A stretch of 58,100 nt of DNA from Candidatus Altimarinota bacterium (lineage in GTDB: Bacteria > Patescibacteriota > Gracilibacteria > BD1-5 > UBA6164). This document shows positions 1,785 to 38,093 of this stretch, piece after piece. Location: positions 1 to 58,100 of the forward strand of contig JAWUYB010000027.1 of assembly GCA_034111025.1 (NCBI GenBank), written 5' to 3'. Under the pieces are notes generated by a model. That model saw nothing but the letters and a program-made list of their open reading frames with translations. It was not told the DNA's origin and ran no database searches. The translations under genes were made by a program, and so were the position numbers. Position 1 is the stretch's first letter. Each line of letters opens with the position of its first letter.

Positions 1785-1788
1785 TTTT

Positions 1789-2412: not shown

Positions 2413-2478
2413 TATTAAAAAAAATTAAATATAATATAAAAAATCAATTTTATTATACTAAATTTGAATATTTTGCAA

Positions 2479-3813: not shown

Positions 3814-3825
3814 TAATAAATCAGA

Positions 3826-8751: not shown

Positions 8752-8775
8752 CTATAATTATAATAAATATAAAAT

Positions 8776-10674: not shown

Positions 10675-10686
10675 TAAATACACTCT

Positions 10687-11901
10687 ATGTTTTGAAAAAC
10701 ATTTTATGATAAGTATGGGAATTTTGAAAATGAAAAATTCATCTTACTTCTCGAAAAAACAAAAAAGGCTCAAGAGATGAGTAAATATAAAAAAACAAGC
10801 AATATGAATCAAGATATTGCTCTATTTAATAGTGTGAGTAAAAAAGAATTATGGCAGTTTATTAATAAACTTTCAATTTTTGTAAACTCAGGTATTGATA
10901 TTAAAGGTGCATTATGAATCATGGCTAAGCAAGTAAAAAACCCATTTTTACAAAAAATTGTTTTAGAAATGAAAGACAATATTGATCACGGTATATGAAT
11001 CAGTGAAACTATGACACAATATCCTAAAGTATTTGATACATTAACAGTTGCATTAGTTTCAGTATGAGAAAAAACAGGTCAATTATGAAAAATTTTAGCA
11101 GAACTAGATTTCAATTTACTAGAAAGTATAGAATTAAAAGGAAAAGTAAAAGGTGCAATGATGTATCCTATGATACTTTTGGGTTTAACAATTTGTATGG
11201 TGATATTTATGATGATATTTATTGTACCAAGAATTACTGAAAGTTTTACCAAAGCTGGTGCTGACTTGCCTGCATTAACACAAATGGTGGTTAATGTTTC
11301 TAATTTTTTAGTATGACAATGGTATATACTCATTGCTTATTTTGTATGAACTTATATTTTATTAAAACTTATAAATTCTTCATATTTTTGAAAAATGCTG
11401 TTTGCAAGTTTTTTTATAAAAATGCCAATTTTTTGATATGTAGTAAGGCAATCAAATATAGTATTTTTTATTAAATCCTTTACTATATTATTAGACTCTT
11501 GAGTTTTACTACTAGAATCTCTTAAAACATCGAGTCAAGTAGTATCAAACTTGGCATATAAAAAAGAATTAATTAGAATTAAAAATGAAGTTGAAATTTG
11601 ATTAACAATTTCAAAATCTCTTTGATTAAATCTTGATTATGAAGCAAGTGTCTATATGAATCCTTTCTTTCCTGAAGAATTTGCATATGTTGTAAGTACA
11701 GGTGAGGAAACTTGAACTTTATCAGTATCATTACAAAAAATCTGAGCTAATTATAATGGTGATTTAAAAAGATATATTTGAAATATGTCTAGTATGATGG
11801 AACCAGTTATTATTGTGATAGTTGGTGCTTTAGTAGGAACAATTGTAGTTGCAATTATGATGCCATTCTTCCAAATGGGTGATGTAGCTAAAAATCTATA
11901 A
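10687..11901 (+). CDS. pilC: Type IV pilus platform protein PilC/GspF family, 404 aa
   Basis: Two T2SS-F repeats are present (..LVSVGEKTGQLGKILAELD.. and ..VVSTGEETGTLSVSLQKIGANY..). There are several TM segments, and the C-terminus is EPVIIVIVGALVGTIVVAIMMPFFQMG. The standard-code track shows nothing on this strand. Confidence 0.85.
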
Positions 11902-11936
11902 AAAAAAATAAAGTTCAAAAAACTTTATTTTTTTAT
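11902..11936 (+). terminator. Rho-independent terminator after pilC
   Basis: Stem ataaagtt (11908-11915) pairs with aactttat (11921-11928), followed by a T-run. Confidence 0.55.
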
Positions 11937-11968
11937 TTTTTTATTTAGTATAAAGGAAAAGAAGCTTA

Positions 11969-11997
11969 TTGACTTATGTGAAAAGTAATTATATCTT
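11969..11997 (+). promoter_or_regulatory. Sigma70-like promoter candidate for the major pilin gene
   Basis: TTGACT (11969-11974), a 17 nt spacer, then TATCTT (11992-11997). This would give a leader of about 145 nt before the ATG at 12144. Confidence 0.35.
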
Positions 11998-12143
11998 ATT
12001 AACTAAATCATTAATAGACATATTGTCTATTATAAATAATTGCTTTTCTCTTCGAAATAAGATAGAATTGGAATGTCTTAAAAACAAGACACTAATTTTC
12101 AAAATTTACTTTTGTATTTTATTTTTTAAACAGATATAATTCT

Positions 12144-12689
12144 ATGAAAAATACAAATAAAGCATTTACACTAGTGGAACTAATTGTAGTTATCACTATA
12201 CTTGCTGTTCTAGCTACTGTTGCATTTATATCTTTTAGTGGTCAAACACAAGAAGCGAAAAAATCTAAAGTTGTTTCTGATTTAGCTAACTTATCTAAAT
12301 CTATTGAATTAACTGATACAGGGATTAAAAATATTATTTCTGGAGCTTCATCAACTAATGAAGTTACTGGTACTGCAAATGGTGATACTATAGATGCAAC
12401 TACTTATGGTGTTGGTTGAGTTGACTTTACAGTTGTGAATCAAAATCCTTCTGAATTTGTTGATGCTGAGGGTAATGCTTATATGTTTGCATACTTTGCA
12501 TCAGGTTCATTTAATAAATACCAAGTTGTTGGTCAAGTAAAAAACGGTGCTGGTGATAATGTATCATTATTAAAAGGGAGTTACTTCCAAGTTGGTAATA
12601 CTGATGCTCTTGGTCTAGTTTCTGTTAATAGTACTAGTACTACTGGTCTAACTAATGAAGAAGAAATTGGTCAAACTTCAATTTACTAA
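12144..12689 (+). CDS. pilA: Major type IV pilin candidate, 181 aa
   Basis: The prepilin N-terminus is MKNTNKAFTLVELIVVITILAVLATVAFISF. Track ORFs 12144-12419 and 12435-12689 are one frame joined by a single TGA. The gene is monocistronic, sitting between a promoter-like site and a strong terminator. The globular part is G/T/S-rich. Confidence 0.8.
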
Positions 12690-12701
12690 TAAATATTAGT
12701 T

Positions 12702-12738
12702 AAAAAAAGACTCTTCTTTCGAGAAGGTCTTTTTTTTG
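12702..12738 (+). terminator. Rho-independent terminator after pilin gene
   Basis: aaaaaaagactcttc-tttcga-gaaggtct followed by tttttttt. Confidence 0.65.
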
Positions 12739-12789
12739 TCTTATATTTTTAATAAAAAAATATTTAGCATAATTTCTGTATATCTTTAT

Positions 12790-13875
12790 TTATCTTTCTA
12801 AACTATCTTTTATAAGCTTAGGATTGTTAGCATACTTTAAACCTTCTTCTAGAGTAATTGTACCCGATTGAATAAGATTAACAATATCTGTTTCAAGTAA
12901 TTGCATTCATTCTCTCATCCCTATTTGGATAACAGATGGTATTTGATGGAGATCATTTTCTCTAATTAAATTAGCTACCGCTTGATTTTTATATAATATT
13001 TCTTTTGCTAATTTTACTCATGTACCATCACTCGTTTTTAATAATCTTTGTGAAAATACTGCCACTAAAGAATCCGCTAATTGAAGTCTTATTTGATTTT
13101 TATCAGCAGCTTCAAAACTATCTAATATTCTTGTAATTGTTTGATAAGCACTACGTGTATGTAGTGTTGAAAAAACTAAATGCCCTGTTTCAGCGAGTCT
13201 AAGAGCCATTTCCATTTCAGATTTTGATCTCATTTCCCCAAATAGTATCACTTGAGGATTTTGTCTCATAGCACCAATTAATGCAGTTTCATAATCTGGA
13301 ATATCTCTCCCTATTTCTTTATGTTCAATAATTGACATTTTATGAGAATGTACATATTCAATTGGATCTTCTATAGTAATAATATGTCTATTATAATTTT
13401 CATTTATATAATCAATCATAGCAGCAAGAGTTGTTGTTTTACCAGATCCAGTTGGCCCAGTAACTAATATAAGTCATTGTCCTAATTTGGTAACATCTTT
13501 GTAAATATCCGTTAAACCTAAATTTTCAGCGTTTGGAATATCAACCGTTAAAAGTCTTAATACAGTCATATAATTTCACATTTGAAAAGATATATTAACT
13601 CTGAATCTTCTTCTTCAAAAGCTAAAAGAAAAATCATAATTTTGATCCCTATTTAGTATTTCTAATTCTTCAAGAGTAATTAATGAATGTGCAAAATCTT
13701 TTGAAGATTCCGAAGTAAATTTTTCTACTCCATCATCTAAACGAACAATATCTCCTCCAATTTTAATCGCTGGGTAAGTTCATACAGTAATATACATATC
13801 ACTCCCTTCATTATCAATCATAACTTGTAATAATTGATCTTTAAAAATATTATCCTCGATTATTAACTTGCTCAT
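12790..13875 (-). CDS. pilT: Twitching-motility (retraction) ATPase PilT family, 361 aa
   Basis: The frame contains track ORF 13018-13419. Motifs: ..RFRVNISFQMG.., Walker [30 protein letters not shown], and GEMRSKSEMEMALRLAETGHLVFSTLHT. ATG is at 13873-13875 and TAA at 12790-12792. Confidence 0.9.
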
Positions 13876-13938
13876 CTAAACGGTATTAATATATAATTAC
13901 TATCATTGTATCATATAAAGATTTAAGGAACAAAAAAA

Positions 13939-14778
13939 CTAGAGATTATTTAGCTTTTTTATTTTTGGATTTTTTTTCATAAATATTCCTGCATTTACAA
14001 GTAATGTTAATGCAACTAATACCCATGTTTCAGAACCAGTATCTGGTGTTTTAGCAGCATTTAGAGCTATATTTTCTAGTTCTAAAACTTCTTTACCTTC
14101 ATCATCGATTAATACAGCTTCTTTTTTTATAACTTCAACAGTATCTGTTGTTTCAAAGTCATATAATTCTTCATTAAAAGATATATTTTTAAATGCTCCG
14201 TCTTCTAATGATAATATCATTAACATATATTGACTATGAGACATAATAGCTTTTTTTAGATGTAATTTTAATTCTTGTGGTCCAGTATATGAAATTGTAT
14301 CTACAAATATTTCACTAAATACTTTAAATTCAAAATCTGAATCATCTACAAGATTTTTGAAATATACTTCTAAAGTTCTTTTATCAACAGTAACAATTTT
14401 AACTATCCCTTGATCTTTAGGTTGATACATATTTGGAATTTCAACATCAAGAAAAGATTCTTCTGTTCTAAAATCGATATTTCAATTTGCACCGAATATA
14501 GTTAATAGATTATAATTGGTTAACATTTGTAGGTCTTCTTCTAGAGTTAAGATCACTTTATTATGATCATTAATATCTCTTGTAGCAAAACTAACTAAAA
14601 TATCTTTTAATACTTTTACATCACCTGTAATAGCTTCTGATAAAGTAACATCACTCGATAATGATAGTTGTATTTCATGACTATTCATAACTTCAATATT
14701 TTCAAGAGTAGCTGCATGCGTAGTATTTGTAATAATACTTGTAATAAATAGTAGGAAAATAATTTTTAAAAGTTTCAT
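13939..14778 (-). CDS. Secreted protein with C-terminal sortase-like sorting signal, 279 aa
   Basis: Track ORFs 14482-14778 and 13939-14430 are one frame joined by TGA (14482-14484). The signal peptide is MKLLKIIFLLFITSIITNTTHA. The C-terminus is KTPDTG + SETWVLVALTLLVNAGIF + MKKNPKIKK. Confidence 0.65.
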
Positions 14779-14922
14779 AACTGAAATTTTTAGATAAATA
14801 AATATATATATCTATTACATCACATAAAAATCTCTGTGTCAAAAAAAAAGTATAATATTTTATCATTTTGTAATAAGTTCCTTTTGTTTATAATAACTTC
14901 AATTATTTTTTTATATTCATAT

Positions 14923-15861
14923 ATGGATTATATTCTATTAATCATAGGTTTTCTTTTATTAATCAAATGATCAGATTTACTTGTAGATTGAGCTAGTTCT
15001 ATAGCGAAAAAATTTGGTATTTCTTCATTAGTTATTGGTTTAACAATTGTAGCATTTTGATCAAGTTCACCTGAATTGGTCATTAATTTAATTTCTTGAT
15101 TTCAAGGGAAGACTGATTTAGCTGTTTCAAATATTCTAGGAAGTAATATTTCTAATATCTTATTAATTCTTTGAATTACCGCTTTAATTTGTCCAATAAC
15201 TTTACCTCAATCAACGGTAAAGAAAGAAATTCCTTATTTAATATTTGTAGCAGCTATATTAATACTTCTTATATATGATGGAAATATTAATACCTTTGAT
15301 GCAAGTATATTATCAATATTATTTTCCTGATTTTTATTCTATACATTCAAAATTGCTAAAAATTGAAATAATGAAGAAGAAAAAAAAATCGATCTTATGT
15401 CGAATAAAAAAGCTACTATTTATATAATACTTGGTTTTATCTGACTCATAGGTTGATGAAATATGATTGTGGATAGTGCTGTTTCAATTGCTTCAAATTT
15501 TGGTTTACCAGAAGCCTTTATTTGAGTTACTATCGTTGCTATTGGGACATCTTTACCTGAACTTGCTGTGAGTCTCATAGCTGCGTTTAAAAAGCAAACT
15601 GATATAGCTGTAGGTGCAGTGGTAGGTTCTAATATATTTAATACATTATGGATATTAGGTGCAACTTGATTAATAACTACCCTTCCTGCATATGAATGAA
15701 TACATATAGATTTATGAGTAAATCTTATAGCAAGTATATTAATATTTGTTTTCGCTTTCACATTTAAAAAACATTTACTAGAAAGAAGAGAAGGTTTTAT
15801 ATTACTTATTGCATACTTGAGTTATATAGGATATCTCATTTCAACAGTAATAACTACATAA
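14923..15861 (+). CDS. Ca2+/cation antiporter (CaCA/YrbG-type Na+/Ca2+ exchanger), 312 aa
   Basis: Two alpha-repeats are present, [14 protein letters not shown] and [14 protein letters not shown], with [12 protein letters not shown] and [12 protein letters not shown]. About 10 hydrophobic segments are visible. The frame is recovered only with TGA read-through. Confidence 0.85.
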
Positions 15862-15881: not shown

Positions 15882-16262
15882 CTATTTTTTTTGTTCTAAG
15901 TATGTTTCTAATATTAAAGCAGCAGCTATATCATCTCTTTTAGAATAATCTCCCATCTCAAGAGATATTTCATCTGCAGCAAAACTTGTAAATCTTTCAT
16001 CACAACCTTCGATAGATATATGTGGAAATTGTTCTGATAAATACTTCATGTATTCTTTTGTTTTTTCTAGTTGTTTATTTTTTTTTCCATATAAGTCATA
16101 TGGAAGTCCTATAACAATAATTCTAATTTTATATTCAGAAACATATTTTTTTAATGTTTGCATCAGCTTTGGTCTGAGTACAATTTCTTTTGGGAAAACT
16201 ATTCATGTTTGTTCGATAGCAATTCAGCAACGTTTATCTCATAGATCAATTGATAAATACAT
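15882..16262 (-). CDS. ruvX: Holliday junction resolvase-like / pre-16S rRNA nuclease RuvX (YqgF), 126 aa
   Basis: Track ORF 15882-16163 extends upstream through three TGA to MYLSIDLGDKRCGIAIEQTG, the YqgF N-terminal motif. The start overlaps the rplI stop (TAATG). Confidence 0.8.
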
Positions 16263-16714
16263 TAATTTTCTGGGTTAATAACTACTTTAATTTTTGCGCT
16301 AGCATCTTTTCAAAGTTTGATATAAACTGTAGTCTCTCAGAGTTGTTTTATATGACCATTTGGTAAAGAAATATGTTTTTTAGTAAGAGCTATTCTACAT
16401 TCAGATTTGATTGCTTTAATAATATCTTTTTCACCAATTGCTCAAAAAACTTTATCATTCACTCATGTTTTGAGTGTAAAATTAAAAACTTTTGAATCTA
16501 GTAAATCCGTGATATTATGTTTATTTTCTAATAATTCTCTTCTATGAAAATCTTCTTTTTTAAGAGTATCTTTGAATTTTTTTTCAACTTCAGGAGTTAA
16601 TTCAATTGCATATTTTTTTGGAAATAACATATTTATTGCATATCCGGGTTTCACTTCTTTTACTTCACCTTTTTTTGCTACATGTAATACATTTTCTAAA
16701 AATAATACTTTCAT
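16262..16714 (-). CDS. rplI: 50S ribosomal protein L9, 150 aa
   Basis: MKVLFLENVLHVAKKGEVKEVKPGYAINMLFPKKYA... is the typical L9 N-terminus. Track ORF 16463-16714 continues through TGA to TAA at 16262-16264. Confidence 0.85.
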
Positions 16715-16774
16715 ATGATTTTATATTAAAGACTAATTTACTTAAGTATACATTATTAATAAAAAATAAAAAAT

Positions 16775-16803
16775 AAAAAAACTGAAATATTTCAGTTTTT
16801 TTA
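16775..16803. terminator. Hairpin terminator downstream of nusA
   Basis: Palindrome actgaaat/atttcagt (16781-16796), flanked by an A-run and a T-run. Confidence 0.6.
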
Positions 16804-16813
16804 TTTTTCTATG

Positions 16814-17884
16814 TTATTTTGATTCTTCAATATCTTCAATAGATATTTTATATCAAGTTAAACTTGCAGCTAGATGAACATTAAGTCCATTTTTACCAAC
16901 AGCTCTTGCTCTTTCTGAAGCATTAATATAAGCTTTGGCATACATTTCATCTTCATTAATTTCAACTCTAATTACTTCTGCAGGAGAAAGTGATTTTTTA
17001 ATGATTTCACCCATATCTTCTGAATTTGGGATAATATCGATTTTTTCACCTCCTATTTCTTCCATTACTGATTTAACTCTCATACCTTTTTGTCCAATAA
17101 GTGTACCTACGGCATCAATTTCTTCAAATGTAGAAGATACTAACATTTTAGTTTTTATACCAGCTTGTCTTACTACTTTATCTATTGTAATTATTCCTTC
17201 TCAAATTTCAGGAACAAATTCTGCAAATACTGCAGGAACCATTTCAGCCCTTTTTCTTGATAACACTACTTTTGGAGCACCAGTTTCAGTTTTAGCAACT
17301 TCAGCAACATATACAAAAAGCCTTGTCCCAGCTAAATAATTATCTCTAGGTACTTGTTCAGATTTTGGTAAAACTACTTGATTTCCATTATAATCAAACA
17401 ATACTTTCCCACTTTCAACTATATCAATTTTCATAGAAATAACTTCACCTTCTTTTCCATCAAATAATTCATATATTTTTTCTTTTTCAGTATCACCTAT
17501 TTTTTGAATAATTACTTGTCTTGCTGCTTGAGAAGCAATTCTACCAAATGATTCTGCATTATCTTCTCACATTACTTCATCAGTAACATCAAGTTCAATT
17601 TTATCACCTTCTGAAAAATTTTCAGCATCATCTCCTAGTTCTTCAAAACTAATTTCAAGAGCTGGATTTGTAACTTCTTTTACTACAATTTTTTCAATTG
17701 AAATTTCAATTTCATATGCTTCAAAATCTAATTTTACAATTACTTCTTCATCTTTTGCTCAGAAATCTTTTTTATATGCAGTTCTAATAGCTGCTTCAAT
17801 AATTTCAATTAATTTTTCTTTTGGAATTTTTTTTTCAGCTGAGATAATCGATACAGCTTGTTCTATTTGTTTTAAGTCTAACAT
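16814..17884 (-). CDS. nusA: Transcription termination/antitermination factor NusA, 356 aa
   Basis: Joins track ORFs 17201-17434 and 16853-17146. The N-terminus is MLDLKQIEQAVSIISAEKKIPKEKLIEIIEAAI. An S1 region (GEVISMKIDIVESGKVLFDY) and KH regions (AVGTLIGQKGMRVKSVMEEIGGEKIDII; RARAVGKNGLNVHLAASLTG) are present. Confidence 0.9.
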
Positions 17885-17904
17885 TTTTTATTTTTTTATT
17901 TTTT

Positions 17905-17946
17905 AAAAACAAAACGAGAACTTGTGGAACAAATTCTCGTTTTTTT
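17905..17946. terminator. Hairpin terminator downstream of ftsZ
   Basis: Stem acgagaa (17914-17920) pairs with ttctcgt (17934-17940), with A/T runs on both sides. Confidence 0.55.
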
Positions 17947-18005
17947 CAAACGTACAAGCAAATAATATGATTTTTTTCTTATTTTGCAAATATTTTTTAA
18001 ATGAA

Positions 18006-19205
18006 TTACATTTTTTTTCTTAAAAATGTTGGAATGTCTAAATCTTCCCCAGAGTGAGTTGTACCTGAATTTGTATTAGCAGCAGGAATAACTCTAGAAT
18101 CATTTACTGATCTTCTACCAAATGGACTCATACTTGGAGTATCAATTGTTCTTTTTTGTTCTTGAAAGGTTGCATTTGAGACTTCATCAAATCAGGTTGC
18201 ACAAACAGTAATTTTTAGTTCACCATTGTATTCTTCATTAATAGTAGCACCAAAGATAATATTTGCATCAGGATCAACAGATTCAGTAATTATTTTTGCA
18301 GCTTCATCAACTTCAAACATTGATAAATCTGTACCTCCTGTAATATTGAATAATAATCCTTTAGCTCCAGCGATAGATAATTCTAAAAGTGGTGAATCAA
18401 TAGCAGCTCTTGCAGCCTCTACAGCTCTATTTTCCCCTGAACCATATCCAATACCCATAAGAGCAGATCAAGCATTTCTCATAACTGATCTAACATCAGC
18501 GAAATCTACATTAATCATACCTGGTTGAGTAATTAAATCTGAAATACCTTGTACCCCTTGATTTAATACTTCATCTACAATAGAGAAAGCATCTAATAAT
18601 GGAGTTTTTTTATCGATAATAGATAAGATTTTATCATTTGGAATAGTTATAAGTGTATCAACTTTTTCTTTTAATTGTTCATAACCATCGATAGATTTTC
18701 CTAATCTATTTTGACCTTCAAACCCAAATGGTTTTGTAACTACACCAACAGTAAGAGCACCTACCTCTTTAGCAATTTCTGCAACTACAGGAGCAGCACC
18801 CGTACCAGTACCTCAACCTAATCCACAAGTAATGAAGACCATATCAGCACCTTCTAGAGCTATTTTAATATCTTCTCTTGATTCTTCAGCTGATTTTTTA
18901 CCAACTTCTGGATCTGAACCTGCACCTAAACCACCGGTAATAATTTTACCAATATTGATTTTAGTAGGAGCAAGTGAACTAAATAATGCTTGAGCATCTG
19001 TATTAATTGAAATAAATTCAACTCCAGCTAACCCTCATTCAATCATTCTGTTTACTGCATTATTTCAACCTCAACCAACTCAAACAACTTTGATTTTTGC
19101 GACTGGTGAAATTGAAGAAGCTATATTTACTTCTTCAGGACCAGTAGATTCAACATGTGCAGAACCAGATAATAAGCTTTTTAGTTTATCTTCTCTCATT
19201 GACAT
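18006..19205 (-). CDS. ftsZ: Cell division GTPase FtsZ, 399 aa
   Basis: KIKVVGVGGGGNNAVNRM is encoded gtt-TGA-gtt-ggt-TGA-ggt-TGA-aat. [16 protein letters not shown] also contains a TGA, and so does [18 protein letters not shown]. The C-terminal peptide is [12 protein letters not shown]. These are textbook FtsZ motifs, intact only if TGA=Gly. Confidence 0.95.
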
Positions 19206-20716: not shown

Positions 20717-21919
20717 ATGAAAGCTTTTTATACGATTTTTCAGTTAATTATCATCTTAGTATTACTTTCTAATATTATGTTATTTTTCTTATTTTGAGAA
20801 GACGTACTTAATGTAGATAAAAAAATTATGTATATGATTCTTGCAAGTATTGTAGTTATAGAATTTTTAGTATTATCACATGCTATTAATAAATTCTTTT
20901 ATCAACCTATTAAAGACCTTGAAACAACTATAAAACGTTTTTATCATGGTGAATATAAAAATAATAATATCCAATTTAAAGAATCTTGGAATCCTAACTT
21001 AAACTTTGTATTAAAGTTTTTCGGGCAAACCCTTAATACCCTAAAAAACATTAAAACCGAGTTCTTACATGGGAAAGAAATCAAGTCTGAAGTAGACTTA
21101 GCTGGTGAAATTCAAGGAAAAATGCTTACAAAGAAATTAACAAAAGTTCCAGACTTAGATATTATTGTTAAATCAAAATCAGCATGAGAAATTTGATGAG
21201 ATTCTTATGATATTATTCAAGTTAATGATAATTATTATATTTATGTATGAGATGCTACATGACATGGTGTTGGTGCTTGATTTATTATGATTATGGTAAA
21301 TGCTCTTATAAGTGGTTTTGCAAAGGTATTCAAAAATGGAAATACAATTTTATCAAAAACAAATGAAATTCTAAAACCAAGAGTAAAGGCTAATTTACTT
21401 ATGAGTTTATTAATGGTCAGATGGGATCAACAAGAAAAAAGAATGTTTATGACATGAGCATGACATGAGTACTTGATGATATATAAACATCAAAAAAATA
21501 AATGTTATAAAATTAAATCTGGTTGAGTTGCCTTAGGTATGGTCAAAGACTGTAGTAAAATTCTGAAAGAACAAGAAATTCAATTTGAACCTAATGATAT
21601 TATAGTTTTATATAGTGATGGTATAACCGAAGCTATTAATAAGTCTCAAAAAGATGGTACTGAAGAAATGTTTTGAGAACAAAGATTAATAAATGCGATT
21701 GAACAGTCTCCTAATATTCCGAATAAAAAATATAAATCTAGTAGATCTATATTTAATAATATTACGATAGAATTATCTCAATTTATGTGATATAAACATG
21801 TACAATTAGATGATGTAACATTAGCTACCATTCATTATAAATGAGTAGATTTCGATATAGCTCATGATTTTGATAGAGAGATAACTGGAGATTTTATAAC
21901 AGAATGGAATTGGAATTAA
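20717..21919 (+). CDS. Membrane-bound PP2C/SpoIIE-type phosphatase (2 TM + linker + phosphatase), 400 aa
   Basis: In frame with track ORF 20828-21187. The phosphatase domain reads GEIGGDSYDII..YVGDATGHGVGAGFIM..MTGAGHEYLMIY..IVLYSDGITEA..LDDVTLATI. This is a paralog of the phosphatase domain in the pilus locus. Confidence 0.75.
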
Positions 21920-22051: not shown

Positions 22052-23914
22052 GTGTCAAACCAAGAAAATTTAAAACATTTAGTGAGCATAAATATCTCTT
22101 GAGATGTTTATACATATATAGACACAAAGAAAAAATTTACTCTAAGTAAAATATCTAAGCAAGAATTAGCACAAGATGACAAACAACTACTAGAAACAGA
22201 AAAGGAATATAAAGAAGCGATGGCATATGTAAAAGATGCTATTTCACCTGCTTATATGAAAATTCTACCAAATAAATTACAAATCAATAATACTTTAGCA
22301 AGAACTTTCTTTGTATATGCATACCCGACATTTTTAGAATGAAATTGGTTATCACCTATTATTAATTGGGACATTAAATACGATATGAGTCTTTTTATAT
22401 ACCCTGTTGAATCAGCAGATATTCAAAAATTTCTAAAAAAGAGATTAACTCAACTTCATTCAGAAAGATCAATTAATGCTGAAAAAGGTTTAATAAATGA
22501 CCCCGCTATTGAAGCTCAAATTCAAGATGTTGAAGAATTAAGGCATAAACTTACTAGATGAGAAGAAAAATATTTTCATTTTTCTTTATATATTACAATA
22601 TATGCAGAAAATGATGATCAATTAAATAAAATTTGAAAAGATATAGAAACTATATTAGCATGAAGAAATGTCCTACAAAAACAAAGTTACTTAAGATCTG
22701 AACAAGGTTTTATTTCTACAGGACCTTTTTGTAAAGATGAACTTTGAGTATACAGAAATATTTCTACAGGTTGATTATCAACAACTTTTCCTTTTTCATC
22801 AAGTACATTAAGTCATGATGATGGTATATTATATGGTATAAATACACATAATAATTCATTAGTATTATATGATAGATTTAAGTCTGAAAATGCAAATATG
22901 ACAGTTTTTGCCAAATCAGGTTCAGGTAAATCATTTGCTGTTAAATTAGAAATACTTAGATCCCTTATGATGGGTATCGATGTAATAGTTATTGATCCTG
23001 AAAATGAATATCAAGCATTAATTAATCAAGTTGGTTGAAGTTATTTAGATGTGAGTCTAAATTCAAATCAAAGAATTAATCCTTTTGACTTACCCCTTCC
23101 TTTAAAAGATCAAAAAGAAAAAGCTTGAGATTTATTAAGATCATGAGTTATTAATTTAATTGGATTAATGAATCTGATGTTATGAAAAATGACACCATTA
23201 GAAGAATCATTAATGGAAAAAGCTCTTATTACTACCTATAGTTTAAAGTGAATAACATTTGAAGATGATAGTATTCTAGGAAAAGAAATTCCAGTGATGA
23301 AGGATCTCCAAGATGTATTAGATACTATGGATTGAGCCACTACACTGGTAATGAGAATTGAAAAATATACTACTTGAATATTCTCATGAATATTCTCTCA
23401 ACAAACAAATATTGATTTAGGTGAATGATTACAAGTCTTCTCTGTTAGAGATTTAGATGATATACTCAGACCTATTGCAATGTATGTTATATTAAATTAC
23501 ATGTGGAATAAGGTAAAGTCTAGTAACAAAAAAAGAATATTAGTTATTGATGAAGCTTGGAATGTAATGCAACATGAAGATTCAGCTAGATTTTTATTCT
23601 GATTAGTAAAAAGAGCAAGAAAATATAATCTTGGTATTACAACTATTACTCAAGATGTGGAAGATTTTATAAGTAGTCCATATGGGAAACCTATTGTGAC
23701 CAATTCTTCTATTCAAATATTATTAAAACAATCTAGTGCATCTATAGATGTTCTACAAAATGTATATAAACTTACAGAACAGGAAAAATATATATTATTA
23801 AATGCTGCTGTTTGACAAGGGTTATTCTTTGCATGAACTGAGCATGTATGAATTCAAGTTGTTGCTTCTTTTTATGAAGAACAAGTTGTTACTACTGATC
23901 CAAATGCAAAATAA
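22052..23914 (+). CDS. VirB4/TrbE/TraC-type (AAA_10) secretion/conjugation ATPase homolog, about 620 aa
   Basis: The frame is open from 22046 to TAA at 23912-23914. Candidate starts are GTG 22052, GTG 22082 and ATG 22220. Walker A is FAKSGSGKSFAVK and Walker B is RILVIDEAWNVM. The N-terminal ..LARTFFVYAYPTFLEGNWLSPII..SLFIYPV.. is typical of VirB4-like proteins. Confidence 0.75.
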
Positions 23915-23925
23915 TTTGAAGAATT

Positions 23926-23953
23926 AAAAAAAATCCCGACAGGGATTTTTTTT
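23926..23953. terminator. Bidirectional terminator between convergent genes
   Basis: Stem aaatccc (23931-37), loop gaca, stem gggattt (23942-48), with an A-run and a T-run. Confidence 0.6.
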
Positions 23954-24707
23954 AATTACATGTTTGCATTTTTTTAGTTGAATATTTATATCAATCAAAC
24001 TCAATTGGTTCAGATTCCCATCTTGATCATCCACTTACCGTGTATGTACAAGTCGATTCTCAACTATAATAAGTATTTGTTAATCAAATTAAACAAGATC
24101 AATTTTTTTCATTATTAGTTGTTCTTTTATTTCAACATCCATATGTATATGAAGAAGAAGATACTGATGACCAAGTTCCTGTAGGTGGAATAGCTATCCA
24201 TGAAGCTGATTTAATTCTCATATTATAATGTTTTGGAGAATTTCATGGTAGAATTAATTTAAATCATGTTTTTGTTACATTTGAATAAGATATTCAAAGA
24301 TCAAAAGTTTCAGATCTAGAATCATTAGATAAATAGAATCCTGCTGCAGATACTACAATTTTAGGAATTCAACTAAATGGTTTTTGAAAAACCACATTTA
24401 CAGTTTTATTACTATTACTCGTATTATATTCCATACCAGCTTGTACTCACTCAGGCGTAATTGATGCAGCTGGTGAAAAACAACTAAATACCCCCCCTTT
24501 ATATGTTAAACTTTCTCACTCTCAACATTCTGGTATATCAGATTTAGATACTTTTAAATCAAATGTATTGTTTAAATCAGTAGCATCTAAAATTTCTCAA
24601 TTTGTAAATGTTGTAGCAGCAATTACTGCTCAAGTTATTAAAACGGATGTTAGAATAACTGAAAAAGTAAGTTTCCCTACTTTTTCAAAAAATTTATTTT
24701 TATCCAT
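23952..24707 (-). CDS. Membrane-anchored H-type lectin domain protein, 251 aa
   Basis: N-terminal TM segment LTFSVILTSVLITGAVIAA. KTVNVVFQKPFSGIPKIVVSAAGFYLSNDSRSETFDLGISYSNVTKTGFKLIL...RIKSASWIAI matches the H_lectin pattern (V.F.kPFs.pP.Vvv...nVT.tGF......sWiAi). The tail is Cys-containing. Confidence 0.6.
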
Positions 24708-24748
24708 AATATATATTTATTATCGTTATTTAAAAAGTATCTCTTTTT

Positions 24749-27700
24749 TTAGTCTTTCGCAAAATATGAAGGACTTGTTGACCATCTATTATCTCTTTCA
24801 ATAATTATAGGGGCTCTGACATGCTCAGTTTTAGCCGTTCTTAATCAACTAGTTCAATACGCTATTCAAGTTAAATCATATATTAGACCTCATGATGATT
24901 TTGAACTCGTTCTTGAACTAGGGAAACTTAAATCTAAACTAGAATCATATGGAACCATACCAGAAACTCAACCAAAATTACTTGCATTGACTAATGTATA
25001 CCTTCTCAAGAAAGATAAATCATATACTTTTTTGGTATCAGCGTTTGTACAATCTTGTTCAATATATGGACATTTTCACGTTTTATCTCAACTAATAGTA
25101 TTGAGAGAAAATACTGAACCATATATATGTAATTGATTTAATAATTGATCTGGAGTTTGGTAATTAGTTATAACACTTCAACTATTATCAGAAGAAACCA
25201 AAGGTCATTGAGATAATAGGAATGCATCAATATTTGTTACTTCTTCATCTATACTCATCCATCATCCTTGTGTTCAAGTGTTTAATAATCTATCCTGAGT
25301 AATTGAACTTGATATATCAACATTAACTAAACCTTTATCAGTAATAGATGCTATTAATATTTGTCAATTAGTAGAATTTGTATTTATATTCGATTTTATA
25401 GTAACTCTTCAATCCATTACAATAAGTGAATTCATTCCTGAAATATCACAAGTAGTTCAACAATCAATGGTTACATTTCATTTATAAAATGCAATTTTTT
25501 CGTTATTTATATTAAAGCTACAATCTGAATGATCACTTGAAGACATATCTAAGTTATCAATATTTCAACTACACCATTTATTTATTTTATTTACAGAGAA
25601 TATTTTCTTCTTAATTCTTTCTAATAATTCTGCTCTTGTATAAGGTCTTTCTAAATCTAGAGAAGCTAATCATACTTGAACATCATTATTTACTAAACCA
25701 TCTATTTTATTAACAAGTCCTGTGATAGCTATATCTTCTGTTAAGAAATCAACTGAACCATTTGCACTAATATTTGGGAAATAAGCACTTGCTTTTGGTT
25801 CTTCTCATACAACATTAGCTACAATTCATCTTGATATAGATGGTATGTAAGTAGTACCATCTCACGCTTGATAACCAATATATGAAACATATCCCCATGT
25901 ATCAAAACTTGCTCATGCTTTTGCTGCATATTTAGCTAAGAATGAATTGTTAATACTATTTCAAGAAAGAGTATTAAATGCATTTTTTAAAACATTATCA
26001 ATATAGAAATCTGCTCTTAGATTAGTATTTATATTATCTGCATCAAAGAATTTATCAGTAACCATATAAGTTCAGATACTAGTACCATTATTTACAATAT
26101 TTTTTGTATGTTGAGTATTTATACCATCTCTAAGAATATTTAAATCAGCAGCATGGTAAATAAACGGAGAGGCAAACTCAAAATTGAAACGTGATCATTG
26201 AGATCCTAATAATGTATCATTATAAAGTCCAGATGTAATTTTTCAATATCTATCTAAATCTGTATCTCTATTTATATCCGCTTCTAAATTAATATTATAA
26301 CGATTATTTTGTTCTTCTCTAATATTAGACTCTATATCAATTATTTTAGTTCAGTTAAAACTTAATAACTCATTTTGGTTAATTGGTAGATGAATTGATG
26401 ATAGATTTGAATGTATAATTTTATTTGTAACACTTGCTAATTCAAGTATCGCTGAATCACTCATATAATCATATCAACCAACGGTTGGTAATTTAGATGA
26501 GATACTAAATTCAAAATCTCAATTAGAATTTGCATTATTTTCTTTTAATACAACATTGTTAAGATTTACATTTCAACTCAGTTCAGTCCCTACTATATCA
26601 ACAGCATTATTATTAGCTCATCAATGTAAGTTATTAGTATGACTTGTGTTTAAACCATTTATAAAATCTAATTCTGTAGAAACATTTCTAATCTGAATTG
26701 CTCCTAAATATGCATTCCTAATCCTGTTAGAATACTTATCTCTTAATGAATAAGAAGTTGTATATTTATCAGGGCTATTTGCAGGATTATTTGCAAAAGC
26801 AGTAGTAGGCATATTAATTTTGATAGTTGAAGTACTGTTATCAATAATATTAGCCATTACTCTAAAGTTTTTGAACACTGTTGTTCAATCTATACAATTT
26901 CAAACAATATCACATATTTGATTCCCTGAAATTCAAGGAGTTTCAAATACTACTCAATAGTTTCTATAATTCCCTGTTTCAATTTCATTAATATCTGTTA
27001 CATCAACATCTGATAAATTAAATGCTGGTGAACTAACACCAGAAGTGTTAGCTGATAATAGAGCAATTTGTTGAACTGCACTATCATTATGTTTTTCAGT
27101 TTTTAATTTTATGTTTGGTGCCATATGATCATTAGCTCACCAGTTATAGTTTATTACTGTAGATTCATTTGCAGAAATCATCTTTGAATTTTTAGATGAA
27201 AGTAATAAATCATCTCAATTTGTAAAGTTTAAAGTGAATAAGCTTGGATCTGGTTTTGATTCATCCCTGTATACATAAAAGGCTTTTTCAGAATAATTTC
27301 ATGCATTATCTGTTAGACGTACATTAATAAATGTCCCATCATTACCTGTTAATTGAGAAGCAACGGTTCGTCATTTACTAAAAACAAATGTTTCTAAATC
27401 TAAGTTTTTTTGATTTGCCATATCTAGAGCTAGATCAATGATTTTTGTTTCTTGATACCCTGTAGTTCCTCATGGAACAGTATTTCATTTATAAAAATCA
27501 ATTTTATCTAGACGAGACACATGATTAATGTGTGATTTTCCACCATAAGTATCAGTCGCTCAATCCAAAGCAACATTTATTACTGGACTTGGACTAGGTG
27601 GTAAACCACCTTGTTTATATCTAATTTGTGATACATCTCATTGATTATATACTTTTTCAGATGCAGTAGAAACATTATCACTATAACTAGACATTAATGG

Positions 27701-29086
27701 ATGTGTTAGTCCAAGATCATCAGATGATACATGATTAATTCATAGAGTTTCTGGTTTCGTTCAAGTATAAACTTCTTCATTTATATACTGCCCTAAACTT
27801 TTTTCCGTAAAAACAAAATCTCAAAATTTAGGAGCAGTTTTATCAACTTTATATATAAATTGTTGTTTAGAAATGTTATGAGCATTATCCATAGCATAAG
27901 TATCAATAGTCAATACTCATTCTCATATTATTTGAAATCCCATTCCATTAGTTATTGTAGATAAGTCATCTACTCAACCATTGATAGGCAGTGTGGCTAT
28001 TGATCATACTTTAGTAAATTTTTTATCAATACATGGTCAACCTGTTATTTCATCTTTATGTGAGCTACACCATGTTAATTTATAATTAGTTTCTGGTGAC
28101 ATTCATGCAAATAATCCATCATCGAAAGCTGTACTAGTAGATCAAGCAGTTGGCCAGTTTCAAACAGCAACAGGAGGTGTATATGTAATTGGTTTTGTTT
28201 CGGAACATGACGCGGTTAAACCTCCATTTGTACCTTTACATTTCCAAGTCCATGCAATAGTTCAACTAACTGAAGATGCACTATCTAAACTTCAAATTGA
28301 ACAATTATAATGAGTAGCACTACAAGAACCATTCTCTGCTACGACTGGTATGGTACGTGAACATGTTTCACTTTGCCCACCATTTAATCCTGAACATTCC
28401 CATTTATATTGAGTAGAACTATCAGGTAAATCTATATAAGATCCGGCTGTACATATCATATTACTTGGATCTATTGAACAAACTCAGGCTACTGCATAAG
28501 CTTCACACTTATTTCAAACTTGGTTATATCATGAATCACAAACGTCTACAACACAACTATCTGTTCATGTATCATAACGATTACATTCTAAATATTGTGT
28601 AGTAGAAAGATTCTTTTTACAAGAATCATATGTTGAAGTACAACTATCTCCATTATTAGGCATTGGATTACAGACAGAAACCCAAAATAGATCTGCTGCT
28701 ACTACTTCTCAAAATTGTTGCCGTGTTTTAGCATAATTTGTTTGAAATTTTCAAGTACCATTAGTTATAGTACAAGTTGGTGTAGTAGGAATAGTATTTG
28801 TACAGTCTGTACTATTGTAAAAAGTTCCTCATTCATAATTACATTCAGTAATATCCATAAAATTGATACAAAGTCATCTATCATAACATGAACCTATATC
28901 AAAATTACATTGAGCATTATGTTCTGGGTAAAAATCACAGCAGGCAACCTGTGAAATGCTTATTATATCATTACCAAATTGATTAGGGTTTCATGTATGA
29001 CATGCCATAAGAGCATTACTCTGATTATTTCAAAAAGAAATATAACAAATAATTAGAATCAGAATGAGAGATAAATATTTTTTCAT
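24749..29086 (-). CDS. Giant secreted Cys-rich surface protein (putative adhesin), 1445 aa
   Basis: A 4338-nt frame runs from ATG (29084-29086) to TAA (24749-24751) with TGA read-through. The longest standard-code ORF inside it is 85 codons (track 26621-26878, in frame). Signal peptide: MKKYLSLILILIICYISF. An EGF-like module CVVDVCDSGYNQVGNKCEA is present, along with two repeats, YKWECSGLNGGQSETCS and WTWKCKGTNGGLTASCS. The C-terminal motif is LHIYGSVFSLNTISGDKTGKCPYIEQDC. Confidence 0.7.
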
Positions 29087-29155
29087 AATATTTGATTAAA
29101 TATAAGTTTAATTTTATTGTAGCAGATTATAGATTAACTAGCAATTAAAGGAGTA

Positions 29156-29455
29156 TTAATTTCCTATGATTGTATTCACTAATTTTTTTTGTGATATACA
29201 ATAATCCATTGCTTGTTTATTAGATAATATATCACAATTTATATTTAGTATTTCTCTAATTCATCTTTTTTGTTGTATCTCAATTAATTCTGATAGTTGT
29301 TTATCATGCATCTTTGGAATATTAGGGTTATCAGAATACTGATCTAATATTTTATTATTTTGATTATAAATAATCATAAAACCTATAGCTATGAATCATA
29401 CTAAAATTATGACTCATATTATGAATGATCTATTTTTATGATGTTTTTTAGACAT
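29156..29455 (-). CDS. Small single-pass membrane protein, 99 aa
   Basis: MSKKHHKNRSFIIGVIILVGFIAIGFMIIY.. with frame ATG 29455 to TAA 29156. It lies between the two Cys-rich genes. Confidence 0.45.
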
Positions 29456-29474
29456 AATTTATTATTAAAAAATA

Positions 29475-31577
29475 TTAGTTTCCTAAAGTATCTGGACTTC
29501 CTAATTTACTAGTTCAGATAATAAATGGGTTTGAACAACTTTTTTGAACAAGCAATGATGCTTCTCATCCAGTAATGCTTCATTCATTATAAATACTTTC
29601 TCAAGTAGCAAGAGATGATTTTAAATTAAGCATGTTACATGCACTTATATTAGTTGTATTACTTGAGTCAGTTACATCTGAACAAGACACTAGTTTATAT
29701 TCACTTCATAATATACACCCTCATACATATCAAATATTATACCAATCATATATTACTGGCATAGCTTCACATGTACTTGAATCTGCAGATAATACATAAC
29801 CAGAATCACAATCAAATTTACATACACTATCATCAGTTATTGCTATACCATCACATTCATATTTAGCATAGGTACCATCAGCTAAAACAGGAGATTTCCA
29901 AACTTTACCTGCTACAGTTGGACAGGTTCCAGTTCAGTTTTGAATATATTGAGTACATAATACTTCGTTCGGATTAACTCCATCGTTCATAATAAAGCTT
30001 CAGTCTATAGTTGAATTATACCATGTATCAGCATCAAAACTTGAATCAAAAACTGAAGTAGCTTGTTCTTTATAGTCATTATCATACTTATATGTAGAAA
30101 CAGGTCTAAAGGTTGGACCTGAGTTATCAATTCTAATTGCGTATGTTTTATTAAATAATTCTGATTTATTAGCATCTAGACTTATTGCATCTATTAATGA
30201 TCTTGCCGCATCATAAGCAGTTATTTTTAAATAATTTTCTCATTCTCATAAACAATCATCTAATCTTGTTTTTCAAAATAATGTTTTTAAAGAAACTATT
30301 CAACTCATTCCATATACACTTGATGTATATGCATTAATTGTTAATTCTGAATATGCTGGATCAATTCAATTCGAAGTATTTACACTGGATAATAAATCAG
30401 TTAAAGCCAATCATGTAAAATCATAATATGCTGAACATCTTCATAAGTCTACTTGTACTTTAGATAGACCTGAGACATCTTTGACAGTTATAGAAAAATT
30501 GTCTACAAGATCTAATCAATCTGTCTTATTGTAATGTTCACAACCAGGAGTATTAATATTAGTATTTGATCCATATGTTCAAGAAAAAGGAGCAATTGCT
30601 TTATATTTATTAAGATTACACCATTTTATTGTATCAGTTTGTAATGAACCATAACTTGCCGTAATAGTTGGTCATGCAGAATCGATTTTTGCATACCTTC
30701 ATTCAGCAGTACACGTATTTTTTGATTCCCTAATATTCCTCCTAAATATTCAAGCTCATATTTGATTTACCGTATTGGAATCTAGGTAATTATTTAATGA
30801 TTGAAATTTATTACAAACCCCATTGCTACCTGCTGTTGAATAGTATGAACTATTTAAAATATCACATGTACTTAACTGAATATTTTTAGCTGGTGTATGG
30901 TTTGTTCATTCAGCTGTAGTTATACATTTAATATTGCTATCAGTTCATAATATAGCATGATCTGAAGGAACTGTTATTAAATCTTTTAAATTATAAGTTT
31001 TAGTATCCTTATTTTTATCGTAATATGTTGATGATGTAAAAATTGGAGTTGTTTTTGATAATGTTTGACAACCATTAGCACCTGTTCTACATGACTTATA
31101 AGTATTACATACTGTCCCGTTTTCAGTATTCCACTCTAAACAACTAGAACTTGTAGTTTTACAGCTAGTATTTCTTAATTCTGTTCATACATTATTCCAA
31201 GTAATAAAAAAATCATTACAACTTTCTCACAAAGGTATCCATTGTACATATCATTTGTTTGTACATTTTTCCATTAATTCCTGATTATATTCTGTACATA
31301 TACTAGGTCATAGAATTTTACAAGTTGTATTCACTTGATCATATATATCACAACCACAAGCACTATTGACTCATAATTTATTTAATAAACAAGAGGCTGT
31401 TGAACACGAATATCATGTTTTGTAGTTATTTTCTGAATTTGCACATGTTTGCTCTGGACTTACTCAAGAGCTTTGTACAATAGTTCATGGAACATAACCA
31501 GCACTTACAATATTATTGATAAATAATGTAAATAATAATGATAAAAATAGTACTCAAAATACATATTTTATTTTCAT
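29475..31577 (-). CDS. Secreted Cys-rich protein, 700 aa (shares modules with the 1445-aa protein)
   Basis: Signal peptide MKIKYVFGVLFLSLLFTLFINNIVSA. Many Cys residues are present. IDNSGPTF parallels VDKTAPKF in the giant protein. The C-terminal EGF-like module is VCKFDCDSGYVLSADSSTCEA. Frame runs from ATG 31577 to TAA 29475-29477. Confidence 0.65.
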
Positions 31578-36590: not shown

Positions 36591-38093
36591 TTAATAGCTG
36601 TATGCGCATCTTGTTGCAATATTTGTACCAGTAATACTTGATGTTTTTACTATAGAGTAGAGTCAGTTTTCTCTACTATCAGTTACTGTTTCATTATAGT
36701 CTCATCATACAACCGTTATATAATTACTATTTCTTCTTACTGTTCCTATTCATTTTTCTTTTGAAAAAGTTGTTTTTGGTCAAAATAAATTTTTGAAATT
36801 TTGATCTGTTATATTCGACCAACTGTAATATGTCGTAGAAGATGGAGTTCCTTGTATGGGAAATAAATCTAATATATTTCTAAAAAAAACTCCTGTAGGA
36901 TTACTTATTTTCATAGTAGATACTTCATTATAATTAGAATCTTGAAAAGTATAGAGGTTTAATGTTTTAACAATCTCCCAATTATTTCATATTAAATCCC
37001 ATATAACTTCTCCATTTGATAATGTTAATTGTCTTTTTTCATCTTGAACAGAATTTCAATTCGTTCATGTTATTAGAGGTCATCCTGTATTAAACCCCGT
37101 AGTATCATTTCAATTATTTCATCAAATGATATGACCACTTCATACTGATCCATTTGACCAATTAACATCAACTTGTTCTATATTTCTTACTAAAGTTAAC
37201 CATTCCATCATAGTCATCATATGATATTGATTTCAATTTCATCTACAATCTTTTCATATACTCAGTGAATTTATACTAGATAATGGTGCACTTCATGCTA
37301 CTGTTTGATAATCAAGAGTATCATCATTTCAAGGTGTAGATGCTTCATATTTCCCTATACAGAAATTTGGTTGACCAAGTTCTAGGTTTCATGGAACCTT
37401 AATATAGTTATCAGGACATATATGAGTTGTGCGAATTTGTGAATTTAAAGATAATTGACCTCATATATATAATGCAGGCATTATACTTGTAGTATCGTTA
37501 CTATAAAGAGATTTTACTAGTTTTACACTAAATATTGGATTAAGTATATCAAACTCTCATTCGTCTATTACATCTTGAGATCTATGAATAGGAGTATTAT
37601 CAGCTTCTAATATCATTCATAATCCTGTTCATTTAAAATATGGATATCTATCACTATAATCAACTGCTGCATATGATTGATTATTAAAAAAACCTATAGA
37701 TTCATCCTTTGGATTTTCTAATAGTGTTAAAATTTGAGCATTATTTCAACTCAAAAAATAACTATAAGGTTCTCAATCTAGTGGATCAGTTCAACCTTGT
37801 GTAATACCAATTCTACCTAGATTCGTTTTTCATACATCTCATTGATATCATACAATGGTTCCAGATAATGTTATTGGTATTGAATTTTCTGATAGAAAAA
37901 AAATAGAATTTGTAACTTTATGATATTCTATAGCTCTTTTTATAACCGATATATTATGTATTCTATTACCATCTCTTGCTAATGATGCATATCATAGAAA
38001 TGAAATGAATCAAATTGTAGCTAGTATGGCAAGTATTGTTATAACTACGATTAATTCTACTAAAGTGAATCCTTCTCTTTTTTTACGATTCAT
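36591..38093 (-). CDS. Pilin-like N-terminus fused to FGE-sulfatase/SUMF1-type (C-type-lectin fold) domain, 500 aa
   Basis: Prepilin helix MNRKKREGFTLVELIVVITILAILATIGFISF. FGE-like motifs: ICPDNYIKVPGN..NFCIGKYEAS, YHMMTMMEWLTLVRN, VIWDLIGNNWEIV (GNvWEW-like), and the terminal VVGGDYNE...ATRCAY. Frame runs from ATG 38093 to TAA 36591-36593. Confidence 0.7.

Follow-up and report, generated by a model that had tools for sequence, protein, structure and literature searches.

A clade-restricted, rapidly diversifying gene module with a candidate role in surface attachment in code-25 Gracilibacteria

The DNA analysed here, called the window throughout, is a 58,100-nucleotide stretch of contig JAWUYB010000027.1 (assembly GCA_034111025.1) from a Candidatus Altimarinota bacterium of the Gracilibacteria. 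It contains a group of four minus-strand genes at positions 23952–31577 that encode, in the order in which they would be transcribed, a 700-residue secreted protein (P700), a 99-residue membrane protein (P99), a 1445-residue secreted protein (P1445) and a 251-residue membrane protein (Table 1). The tight spacing described in the initial annotation of this DNA is exact under genetic code 25, with gaps of 41, 69 and 19 nucleotides, and the secreted or membrane topology proposed for the four proteins is supported by N-terminal signal peptides or transmembrane (TM) helices. Cys residues number 32 in P700 (4.6%), 35 in P1445, 6 in the 251-residue protein and 2 in P99. These are not chance open reading frames (ORFs), because orthologues in the same order are found on at least ten independent contigs. 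Gene spacing and synteny point to co-transcription as an operon. A promoter scan of this AT-rich DNA was uninformative (62 sites versus 66 expected), and most terminator-like matches fall inside coding sequence.

Under translation table 11 the four-gene region has no ORF longer than 183 residues. With UGA read as a sense codon, the ORFs of the window total 77.4 kb instead of 18.8 kb, and the longest has 1449 residues instead of 400. We assign UGA to Gly and not to Trp because FtsA scores 107.9 bits against its Pfam model with Gly compared with 69 bits with Trp, its actin-fold motifs under the Gly reading being DIgSSK and DIgAATTg, and because a Cys module common to both large proteins reads CDSgY (UGA) in one of them and CDSGY (GGN) in the other. 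The window, which has a GC content of 26%, therefore comes from a code-25 bacterium. UGA supplies 66 of the 118 Gly codons of P1445, compared with 49% in the long ORFs of the window. This usage is at the genomic level, which indicates that code-25 genomes have long harboured these genes, and we reject recent horizontal acquisition from a standard-code organism on this ground. A practical lesson is that public protein collections translate such genomes with UGA as Trp (P0001–P0005, P0013, P0023 and others), which corrupts about 5% of residues. It is for this reason that the window's own 251-residue protein is found in databases at 94% identity, and the same error may depress homology detection.

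Table 1. Coordinates of the genes and features discussed. Positions are those of the window, except for the palindrome copies, which are numbered within the relatives' loci.
Feature	Positions	Strand	Basis
P700 gene, 700 residues	29475-31577	-	code-25 ORF
P700 codons 26-33 (signal-peptide end and mature N terminus, A|G-Y-V-P-G-T-I)	31479-31502	-	orthologue conservation
P700 short Cys module VCKFDCDSGYVLSADSSTCEA, residues 586-604	29766-29822	-	motif present; hhalign to P1445
P99 gene, 99 residues	29156-29455	-	code-25 ORF
P1445 gene, 1445 residues	24749-29086	-	code-25 ORF
Two ~50-residue four-Cys repeats of P1445, residues 199-296	28199-28492	-	WxCxGxNGGx4C motif
P1445 conserved core, residues 297-1196	25499-28198	-	~24 representative clusters match most of profile
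P1445 C-terminal module, residues 1197-1439	24770-25498	-	HMM from distant proteins
251-residue membrane protein gene	23952-24707	-	code-25 ORF
H-type lectin domain of the 251-residue protein, residues 102-173	24189-24404	-	Pfam PF09458
Palindrome TGAAAAAGTAGG-GAAA-CTTACTTTTTCA, codons 7-16 (F-E-K-V-G-K-L-T-F-S) of the small gene	24659-24688	-	nucleotide conservation
Palindrome copy, L001	14450-14475		
Palindrome copy, L004	8277-8302		
Palindrome copies, L005	6985-7010 and 7762-7787		
Palindrome copy, L006	4501-4526		
Palindrome copy, L087	11745-11770		
Palindrome copy, L088	16834-16859		

Word-indexed searches of 5.8 billion proteins returned few relatives: five for P1445, nine for the 251-residue protein and four for P700. 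The loci that carry them (given L numbers here) share one arrangement. In L001–L006, L087, L088 and one JGI contig the order is an SDF transporter, P700, P99, P1445, one or more small TM proteins, and then a convergent VirB4 followed by SpoIIE and FtsA. Two of the P1445-family clusters recovered by the profile search described below were located in their contigs. One (L091) retains the whole arrangement including VirB4, and the more distant other (L092) is rearranged, with small TM proteins, a P1445-like protein, a P700-like protein and a further small TM protein in that order. P99 orthologues sit between the P700 and P1445 genes in L001–L005, L087 and L088, as well as in L091 and in a further, more distant locus, L007.

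P700, P99 and P1445 occur together in every locus complete enough to judge, usually accompanied by one to three membrane-anchored proteins of the 251-residue type, which we refer to as heads. That this partnership survives rearrangement is the strongest evidence that the three proteins work together, and we conclude from these gene neighbourhoods that they form a functional module. Separate units with unrelated distributions, the outcome that would have spoken against the initial annotation's single operon, are not what the relatives present: the triad co-occurs, and even in L092 the P1445-like and P700-like genes are adjacent.

P1445 starts with a Sec signal and is secreted. It comprises a swappable Cys-rich N-terminal region, a conserved core of about 900 residues and a conserved C-terminal module, and 27 of its Cys residues lie within residues 27–352. 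The two WxCxGxNGGx4C units reported for the N-terminal region are present (residues 229–242 and 281–294) and mark four-Cys repeats of about 50 residues. These match no Pfam model at E ≤ 1 in the window protein, and the same repeat is found in 2–29 tandem copies in large proteins of unrelated bacteria (P0006–P0012). The core contains strings of the type 'D.AGN...v..D..aP', which suggests immunoglobulin (Ig)-like domain boundaries. It has a sub-threshold match to an NCBIfam OmpL47-type (Ig-like) model (21 bits versus a cutoff of 40) and no match in the PDB at E ≤ 10.

The C-terminal module, of about 245 residues, holds NQLHIYGSVFSLNTI..CPY..C..YDLSFLRRY and APIIIERDNRW. The IYGSVFSLNTI...CP...C motif picked out earlier is located at residues 1322–1346. 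An exhaustive search of 1.84 billion representative sequences with a profile of the core and C terminus of P1445 recovers 175 clusters at E ≤ 1e-3, of which 45 reach E ≤ 1e-30. About 24 of them are proteins of 1100–1830 residues with end-to-end matches to most of the profile. The C-terminal module is the most widely shared part of the protein: a hidden Markov model (HMM) made only from distant proteins of other lengths, with the operon family excluded, matches window P1445 at E = 3.3e-31 (104.7 bits). Members of the C-module family begin with ordinary signal peptides and are called 'hypothetical' wherever they are named. One is from Candidatus Gracilibacteria, and many of the short representatives are fragments of proteins of 850–960 residues. 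Ten members have no Pfam or NCBIfam model, and a profile of these 10 sequences has no PDB match. The earlier statement that the large proteins belong to no characterised family thus stands for curated libraries, and needs amending for P1445, which is not an orphan and belongs to a sizeable uncurated family. Its C-terminal domain, covered by no curated library, is found in many more of the large proteins that these bacteria secrete.

Two distant C-module proteins (L089 5099–7960 and L090 14356–18412) are both encoded near radical-SAM genes. One of these loci has an HxsD-family gene, and one C-module gene is divergent from a gene for a prepilin peptidase (Peptidase_A24). We dropped these neighbourhoods as a functional lead, as they are heterogeneous and with n = 2 could be coincidental.

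P700 is likewise a secreted, Cys-rich protein with a Sec signal. Its N-terminal half is variable, its middle conserved and its C-terminal part rich in Cys. Orthologues in eight loci are 36–62% identical, and it has no family match in Pfam, NCBIfam or PHROGs. Residues A26, G27, P30, G31, T32 and I33 are invariant in all eight orthologues, including that of the rearranged locus L092, and form the sole invariant non-Cys cluster within the first ~290 residues. By analogy with the N-terminal peptide of the secreted protein CofJ (discussed below), this invariant mature N terminus (G-x-x-P-G-T-I) may be a docking or sorting peptide. The P700 peptide considered for such docking is GYVPGTIVQSSG. In the P700 orthologues of L001 (7347–9617), L004 (1427–3490) and L005 (3–1811), the first Cys-rich segment is followed by 9–16 consecutive Gly residues, at a place where window P700 has a different, Cys-containing insert.

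The two large proteins share two short motifs. The shared Cys module is present, with its spacing corrected to C-x(3-4)-C-D-S-G-Y-x(6,8)-C-E-A from the C-x-C start and x(5-7) interval first given, and the D-x-[ST]-[AG]-P-x-F motif is found as DKTAPKF in P1445 (residues 416–422) and DNSGPTF in P700 (residues 484–490). Global homology between P700 and P1445 is rejected, as hhalign aligns 54 columns only (E = 0.006), at the shared Cys module. The label 'EGF-like' attached to that module was not borne out. At E ≤ 1 the window proteins have no match among EGF-family profiles, and EGF scores in an L007 orthologue stay below cutoff (EGF_MSP1_1, 14.2 versus 27 bits; cEGF, 13.1 versus 26.6 bits). With three to four Cys residues the module falls short of the six-Cys pattern of a complete EGF module, and it is absent from some orthologues, the P700 copy being missing from those of L005 and L087. 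In all orthologues the mature forms of P700 and P1445 have an even number of Cys residues, as would be expected if all were paired in disulfides outside the cell, and neither protein has a TM segment or an LPXTG motif. A phage tail-fibre origin of the proteins is not supported, PHROGs searches giving only noise at E > 0.02.

Compared with the proteins encoded around it, those of the operon diverge at several times the rate. Measured against the window proteins in the four closest relatives, identities are 84–96% for the flanking L11, SDF, FtsA, SpoIIE and VirB4 proteins compared with 42–62% for P700, 31–51% for P99 and 49–63% for P1445. L007 is more distant throughout and displays the same disparity (70–88% for flanking and 36–41% for operon proteins). 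End-module swapping is also seen, in that orthologues differ in the N-terminal region of P1445 and in the C-terminal region of P700. The P1445 versions in L087, L091 and L092 have short, Cys-poor N termini. In L007 the orthologues carry thrombospondin type-1 (TSP1) repeats where the window proteins have other Cys-rich segments. The 906-residue P700 orthologue of L007 matches TSP1_ADAMTS at 30.6 bits (Pfam cutoff 23.8) and its P1445 orthologue has a sub-threshold TSP1-family match (18.6 versus 21.6 bits). The window proteins have no Pfam TSP1-family match. The L007 genes, at 11731–15561 and 16058–18778, are in their own right an occurrence of a eukaryote-type adhesion module in Gracilibacteria.

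The two remaining proteins cross the membrane once. P99 combines a TM helix at its N terminus with an ectodomain that contains a conserved C-x11-C-x2-Q-x-K-L motif. From its near-invariant N-terminal anchor the 251-residue protein continues through a linker and a Cys loop to an H-type lectin domain and ends in a four-Cys tail. The lectin call made from the strings KTVNVVFQKPFSGIPKIVVS, SNVTKTGFKL and ASWIAI, all of which are in this protein, is supported by a PF09458 match of 38.2 bits (gathering score 24; E = 1.6e-9) that spans profile positions 1–67 of 67, and precomputed PF09458 matches also fall on its orthologues. As a single sequence the protein has no significant PDB match. For a profile of four lectin orthologues the best PDB match is the galactose-binding lectin 3WMP, which is weak (E = 0.21) and aligns over the same core. 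The domain thus belongs to the PF09458 family of Helix pomatia agglutinin, the discoidins and the coral lectin SLL-2 (PDB 3WMP). Those H-type lectins are soluble and eukaryotic, whereas here the domain lies outside the membrane on an anchored bacterial protein and has Cys-containing segments on either side. A prepilin nature of the small TM proteins is rejected, as they have no N_methyl (PF07963) match at E ≤ 1, the positive control being the window's own 500-residue pilin-like protein (34.1 bits).

The initial annotation described the lectin fold as one that binds N-acetylgalactosamine (GalNAc). Such binding cannot be assumed here. In the CFA/III type IVb pilus of enterotoxigenic Escherichia coli (ETEC), CofB is N-terminally anchored and the would-be GalNAc site of its H-lectin trimer takes up the N-terminal peptide of the co-encoded secreted protein CofJ instead of the sugar (PMC6048534).

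The lectin protein is also not the core of the module. Head proteins encoded downstream of P1445 have a near-invariant N terminus (MNKNKFFEKVGKLTFS...LTG.LVTG). Beyond it they are mosaics, with a linker of either of two types, a Cys loop, a head that may be an H-lectin or something else, and a common four-Cys tail. Gene copy number is zero in L007, one in the window, L006 and L087, two in L004 and L088, and three in L005. Compared with L088, the single head protein of the window resembles copy 1 over residues 1–60 and copy 2 over residues 61–251. Mosaic heads in zero to three copies per locus, with lectin heads missing from some loci, indicate that the lectin protein is an exchangeable accessory.

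The conserved start of the head genes includes a near-perfect 12-base-pair inverted repeat with a 4-nucleotide loop. This palindrome is nucleotide-identical, synonymous sites included, in eight of ten small genes and fixes the rare codons GGG (8% usage) and CTT (17%). Third-position identity is 0.86 within it, compared with 0.53 in the next 15 codons, which encode the TM helix. It is unique in the window (0 expected) and elsewhere is confined to loci with small genes. Its preservation at synonymous sites implies selection at the nucleotide level. The palindrome may be an RNA element or a recombination site, and may explain the near-invariant N-terminal peptide of the head proteins.

In mycoplasma variable surface protein loci and in shufflons, variable surface-protein cassettes are arranged in tandem and have a conserved 5′ end. 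The head genes resemble these in having a near-invariant 5′ segment with an inverted repeat, variable 3′ heads, copy-number variation and mosaicism. They differ in that the head copies are complete and in direct orientation, the operon has no recombinase, and no inversion or switching has been observed. Among the proteins scanned, none near the window operon is a recombinase. In L087 a 543-residue large serine recombinase (Resolvase and Zn_ribbon_recom; 1470–3101) is encoded just past rplK, beside the operon-bearing interval.

We propose that the four genes are a clade-restricted, rapidly diversifying surface attachment module of code-25 Gracilibacteria, and put the probability of this reading at roughly 0.55. 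It is based on the binding-type modules (H_lectin, TSP1_ADAMTS in the L007 orthologue, and a four-Cys repeat in common with giant tandem-repeat proteins) and on gene coupling, fast evolution, modular ends and heads, signal or TM topology and even Cys counts. Code-25 Gracilibacteria are presumed to be host-dependent. To our knowledge, partner recognition by episymbiotic or predatory Patescibacteria is largely unknown, and almost nothing is established for Gracilibacteria. The locus is a defined candidate for partner attachment, with a three-protein core, swappable lectin-type heads and an invariant N-terminal peptide. In the mechanism we envisage, exported P700 and P1445 would be held at the surface by the C-terminal module of P1445, by the co-encoded membrane proteins or by both, and the G-x-x-P-G-T-I terminus of P700 may serve in docking. 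The lectin head, together with the exposed and variable Cys-rich modules, would bind structures of a partner cell or particle, probably glycans, and the swapping of end modules and head cassettes would adapt binding specificity. The surface adhesin complex of the initial annotation is thus plausible, given the fast divergence and the above-cutoff TSP1 match in an orthologue, with adhesin function itself being something that we infer.

Several points weigh against the attachment proposal. Its evidence is sequence evidence throughout. For the greater part of both large proteins there is no match to a known domain, so the term adhesin depends on a smaller part of the sequence and on how the proteins evolve. 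AlphaFold models of the P1445 core and of P700 are unusable, both having a mean pLDDT (predicted local distance difference test score) of 27.8. Their inputs were substrings of database homologues with UGA as Trp and alignments of four to five sequences, and these mistranslations and shallow alignments probably contributed to the failure. H-lectin domains do not always bind sugar, as CofB illustrates (PMC6048534). The lectin is dispensable, since lectin heads are absent in L006, L007 and L087, of which L006 and L087 keep non-lectin heads. Fast evolution would be equally expected of any envelope protein that is exposed and under pressure from phages or predators.

The CofB precedent also provides a different role for the head. 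By analogy with its trimer, which binds the N-terminal peptide of CofJ and not GalNAc (PMC6048534), the H-lectin head might bind no glycan and instead be a trimeric docking platform for a secreted protein that would be the real adhesin, for instance through the N-terminal peptide of P700. Such docking would fit both the lack of any anchor in the large secreted proteins themselves and the invariance of that peptide in all eight P700 orthologues. The peptide is kept, however, in L007, which has no small TM gene, and in L006 and L087, which have non-lectin heads only. Because some relatives lack lectin heads, the receptor for the P700 N terminus is not the lectin in general. The small TM proteins, moreover, lack a prepilin motif, and we consider a CofB-like platform unlikely. 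CofB–CofJ nonetheless shows concretely how a secreted adhesin could be tethered by its N-terminal peptide, and resembles the present system in pairing a terminal H-type lectin on an N-terminally anchored protein with a co-encoded secreted protein. It differs in that CofB is a minor pilin at the pilus tip, and in that the lectin head is optional among the relatives studied here.

It is similarly improbable, in our estimate, that the proteins form a structural or protective coat or spacer layer, their rapid change coming from evasion of phages or predators and not from binding to a host. Such a layer would suit proteins that are large and secreted, keep their core and C-terminal module conserved and vary mainly at the exposed ends, and the related Vampirococcus has a fibrous surface layer (PMC8080830). 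The modules that can be identified (lectin, TSP1 and tandem Cys repeats) are binding modules, however, and the operon is missing in close relatives with the same backbone, which argues against an essential envelope role.

A more elaborate proposal, which we regard as a long shot, joins several of these elements. The triad would be a surface scaffold with exchangeable heads, the palindrome would be a DNA- or RNA-level site for head duplication, deletion, recombination or differential expression that switches partner specificity, and the G-x-x-P-G-T-I terminus of P700 would dock in the manner of CofJ on CofB.

The position of the operon raises the question of whether it is the surface or adhesin part of a type IV secretion system (T4SS) that includes the neighbouring VirB4, in the role of the PrgB-type adhesins of Gram-positive conjugation systems. 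The window VirB4 is a genuine protein of the monoderm CD1110 type (NCBIfam 343.5 bits, cutoff 325; Pfam TraG P-loop 97 bits), its gene ends 37 nucleotides from the operon, and the adjacency is kept in every operon-bearing locus that extends far enough. T4SS partners and adhesins have been reported as undetected near virB4 in Gracilibacteria (PMC12102498). PrgB-type adhesins of monoderm conjugation, too, are large exported proteins encoded beside an MPF-FATA-related VirB4 (PMC12102498). Against such a partnership, the operon genes are convergent with virB4 and not co-directional, and the four proteins have no Pfam or NCBIfam homology to a T4SS component or a PrgB-type adhesin and no LPXTG anchor. 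A GTDB scan anchored on VirB4 yielded 80 loci (VirB4 identity 53–86%), and operon-family HMMs find homologues in only one of them, the closest (L007), so that the adjacency is limited to one clade. L008 and L014 have the FtsZ–FtsA–SpoIIE–VirB4–L11 backbone intact with rplK directly after virB4. As this interval is empty there, the operon and the SDF gene constitute a clade-specific insert. Since all operon-bearing loci share the whole backbone, the adjacency reflects frozen synteny and not partnership. We therefore reject the operon as a T4SS partner on synteny, consider a role in the T4SS very unlikely, and place the VirB4 ATPase, as far as these gene orders indicate, outside the module. The question from the T4SS survey is thus settled for this locus, in that the genes beside virB4 are not its missing partners.

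We regard it as extremely improbable that the large proteins are secreted to attack prey cells, as effectors or lytic factors. Giant secreted proteins are reported to be implicated in cell-wall degradation by predatory bacteria (bioRxiv 10.1101/2023.11.21.568195), but Pfam, NCBIfam, PHROGs and PDB sequence searches find no hydrolase, toxin or peptidase domain in them.

A close parallel for the attachment reading comes from Vampirococcus. Its large surface proteins contain adhesion domains and have been suggested, without experimental test, to act in host recognition and attachment (PMC8080830). The giant membrane-associated proteins of Vampirococcus lugosii resemble those described here in being large exported proteins with interaction or adhesion domains from host-dependent code-25 Patescibacteria (PMC8080830). 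They are set apart by domain content, with PKD, integrin, fibronectin, DUF11 and WD40 domains compared with the H-lectin, four-Cys repeats and uncurated core and C-terminal module of the window proteins, and here the genes form a conserved multi-gene module with small membrane partners. A surface-attachment system is the kind of system to expect of host-dependent Patescibacteria, and the proteins of this candidate are themselves uncharacterised. Less expected are the conserved triad, the widespread uncurated C-terminal domain, the exchangeable heads and the intragenic palindrome.

The neighbouring genes have features of their own. A gene for a membrane-anchored SpoIIE/PP2C phosphatase (20717–21919) lies immediately upstream of virB4 (22220–23914, plus strand) and is co-directional with it. 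This pairing is found in at least 18 code-25 Gracilibacteria loci (L007–L030 and L082, around positions 8400–11700), and the T4SS survey makes no mention of it (PMC12102498). VirB4 is unusually conserved, at 53–86% identity over the 80 loci. The window VirB4 has 564 residues from its first ATG and covers only positions 187–734 of the 752-position CD1110 profile, compared with 615–620 residues assigned to its relatives by gene callers. Either its start is further upstream at a non-ATG codon or its N-terminal domain is reduced.

The window also contains a type IV pilus gene set (7531–13875, 147–4614 and 36591–38093) in which several large proteins are pilin-like or secreted. Inspection by eye points to PilB/PilT-like ATPases and a PilC-like protein, and a pilin gene is located at 12144–12689. 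Proteins of 545, 444 and 262 residues encoded at 147–4614 have no Pfam match, and the 500-residue protein encoded at 36591–38093 carries an N_methyl motif.

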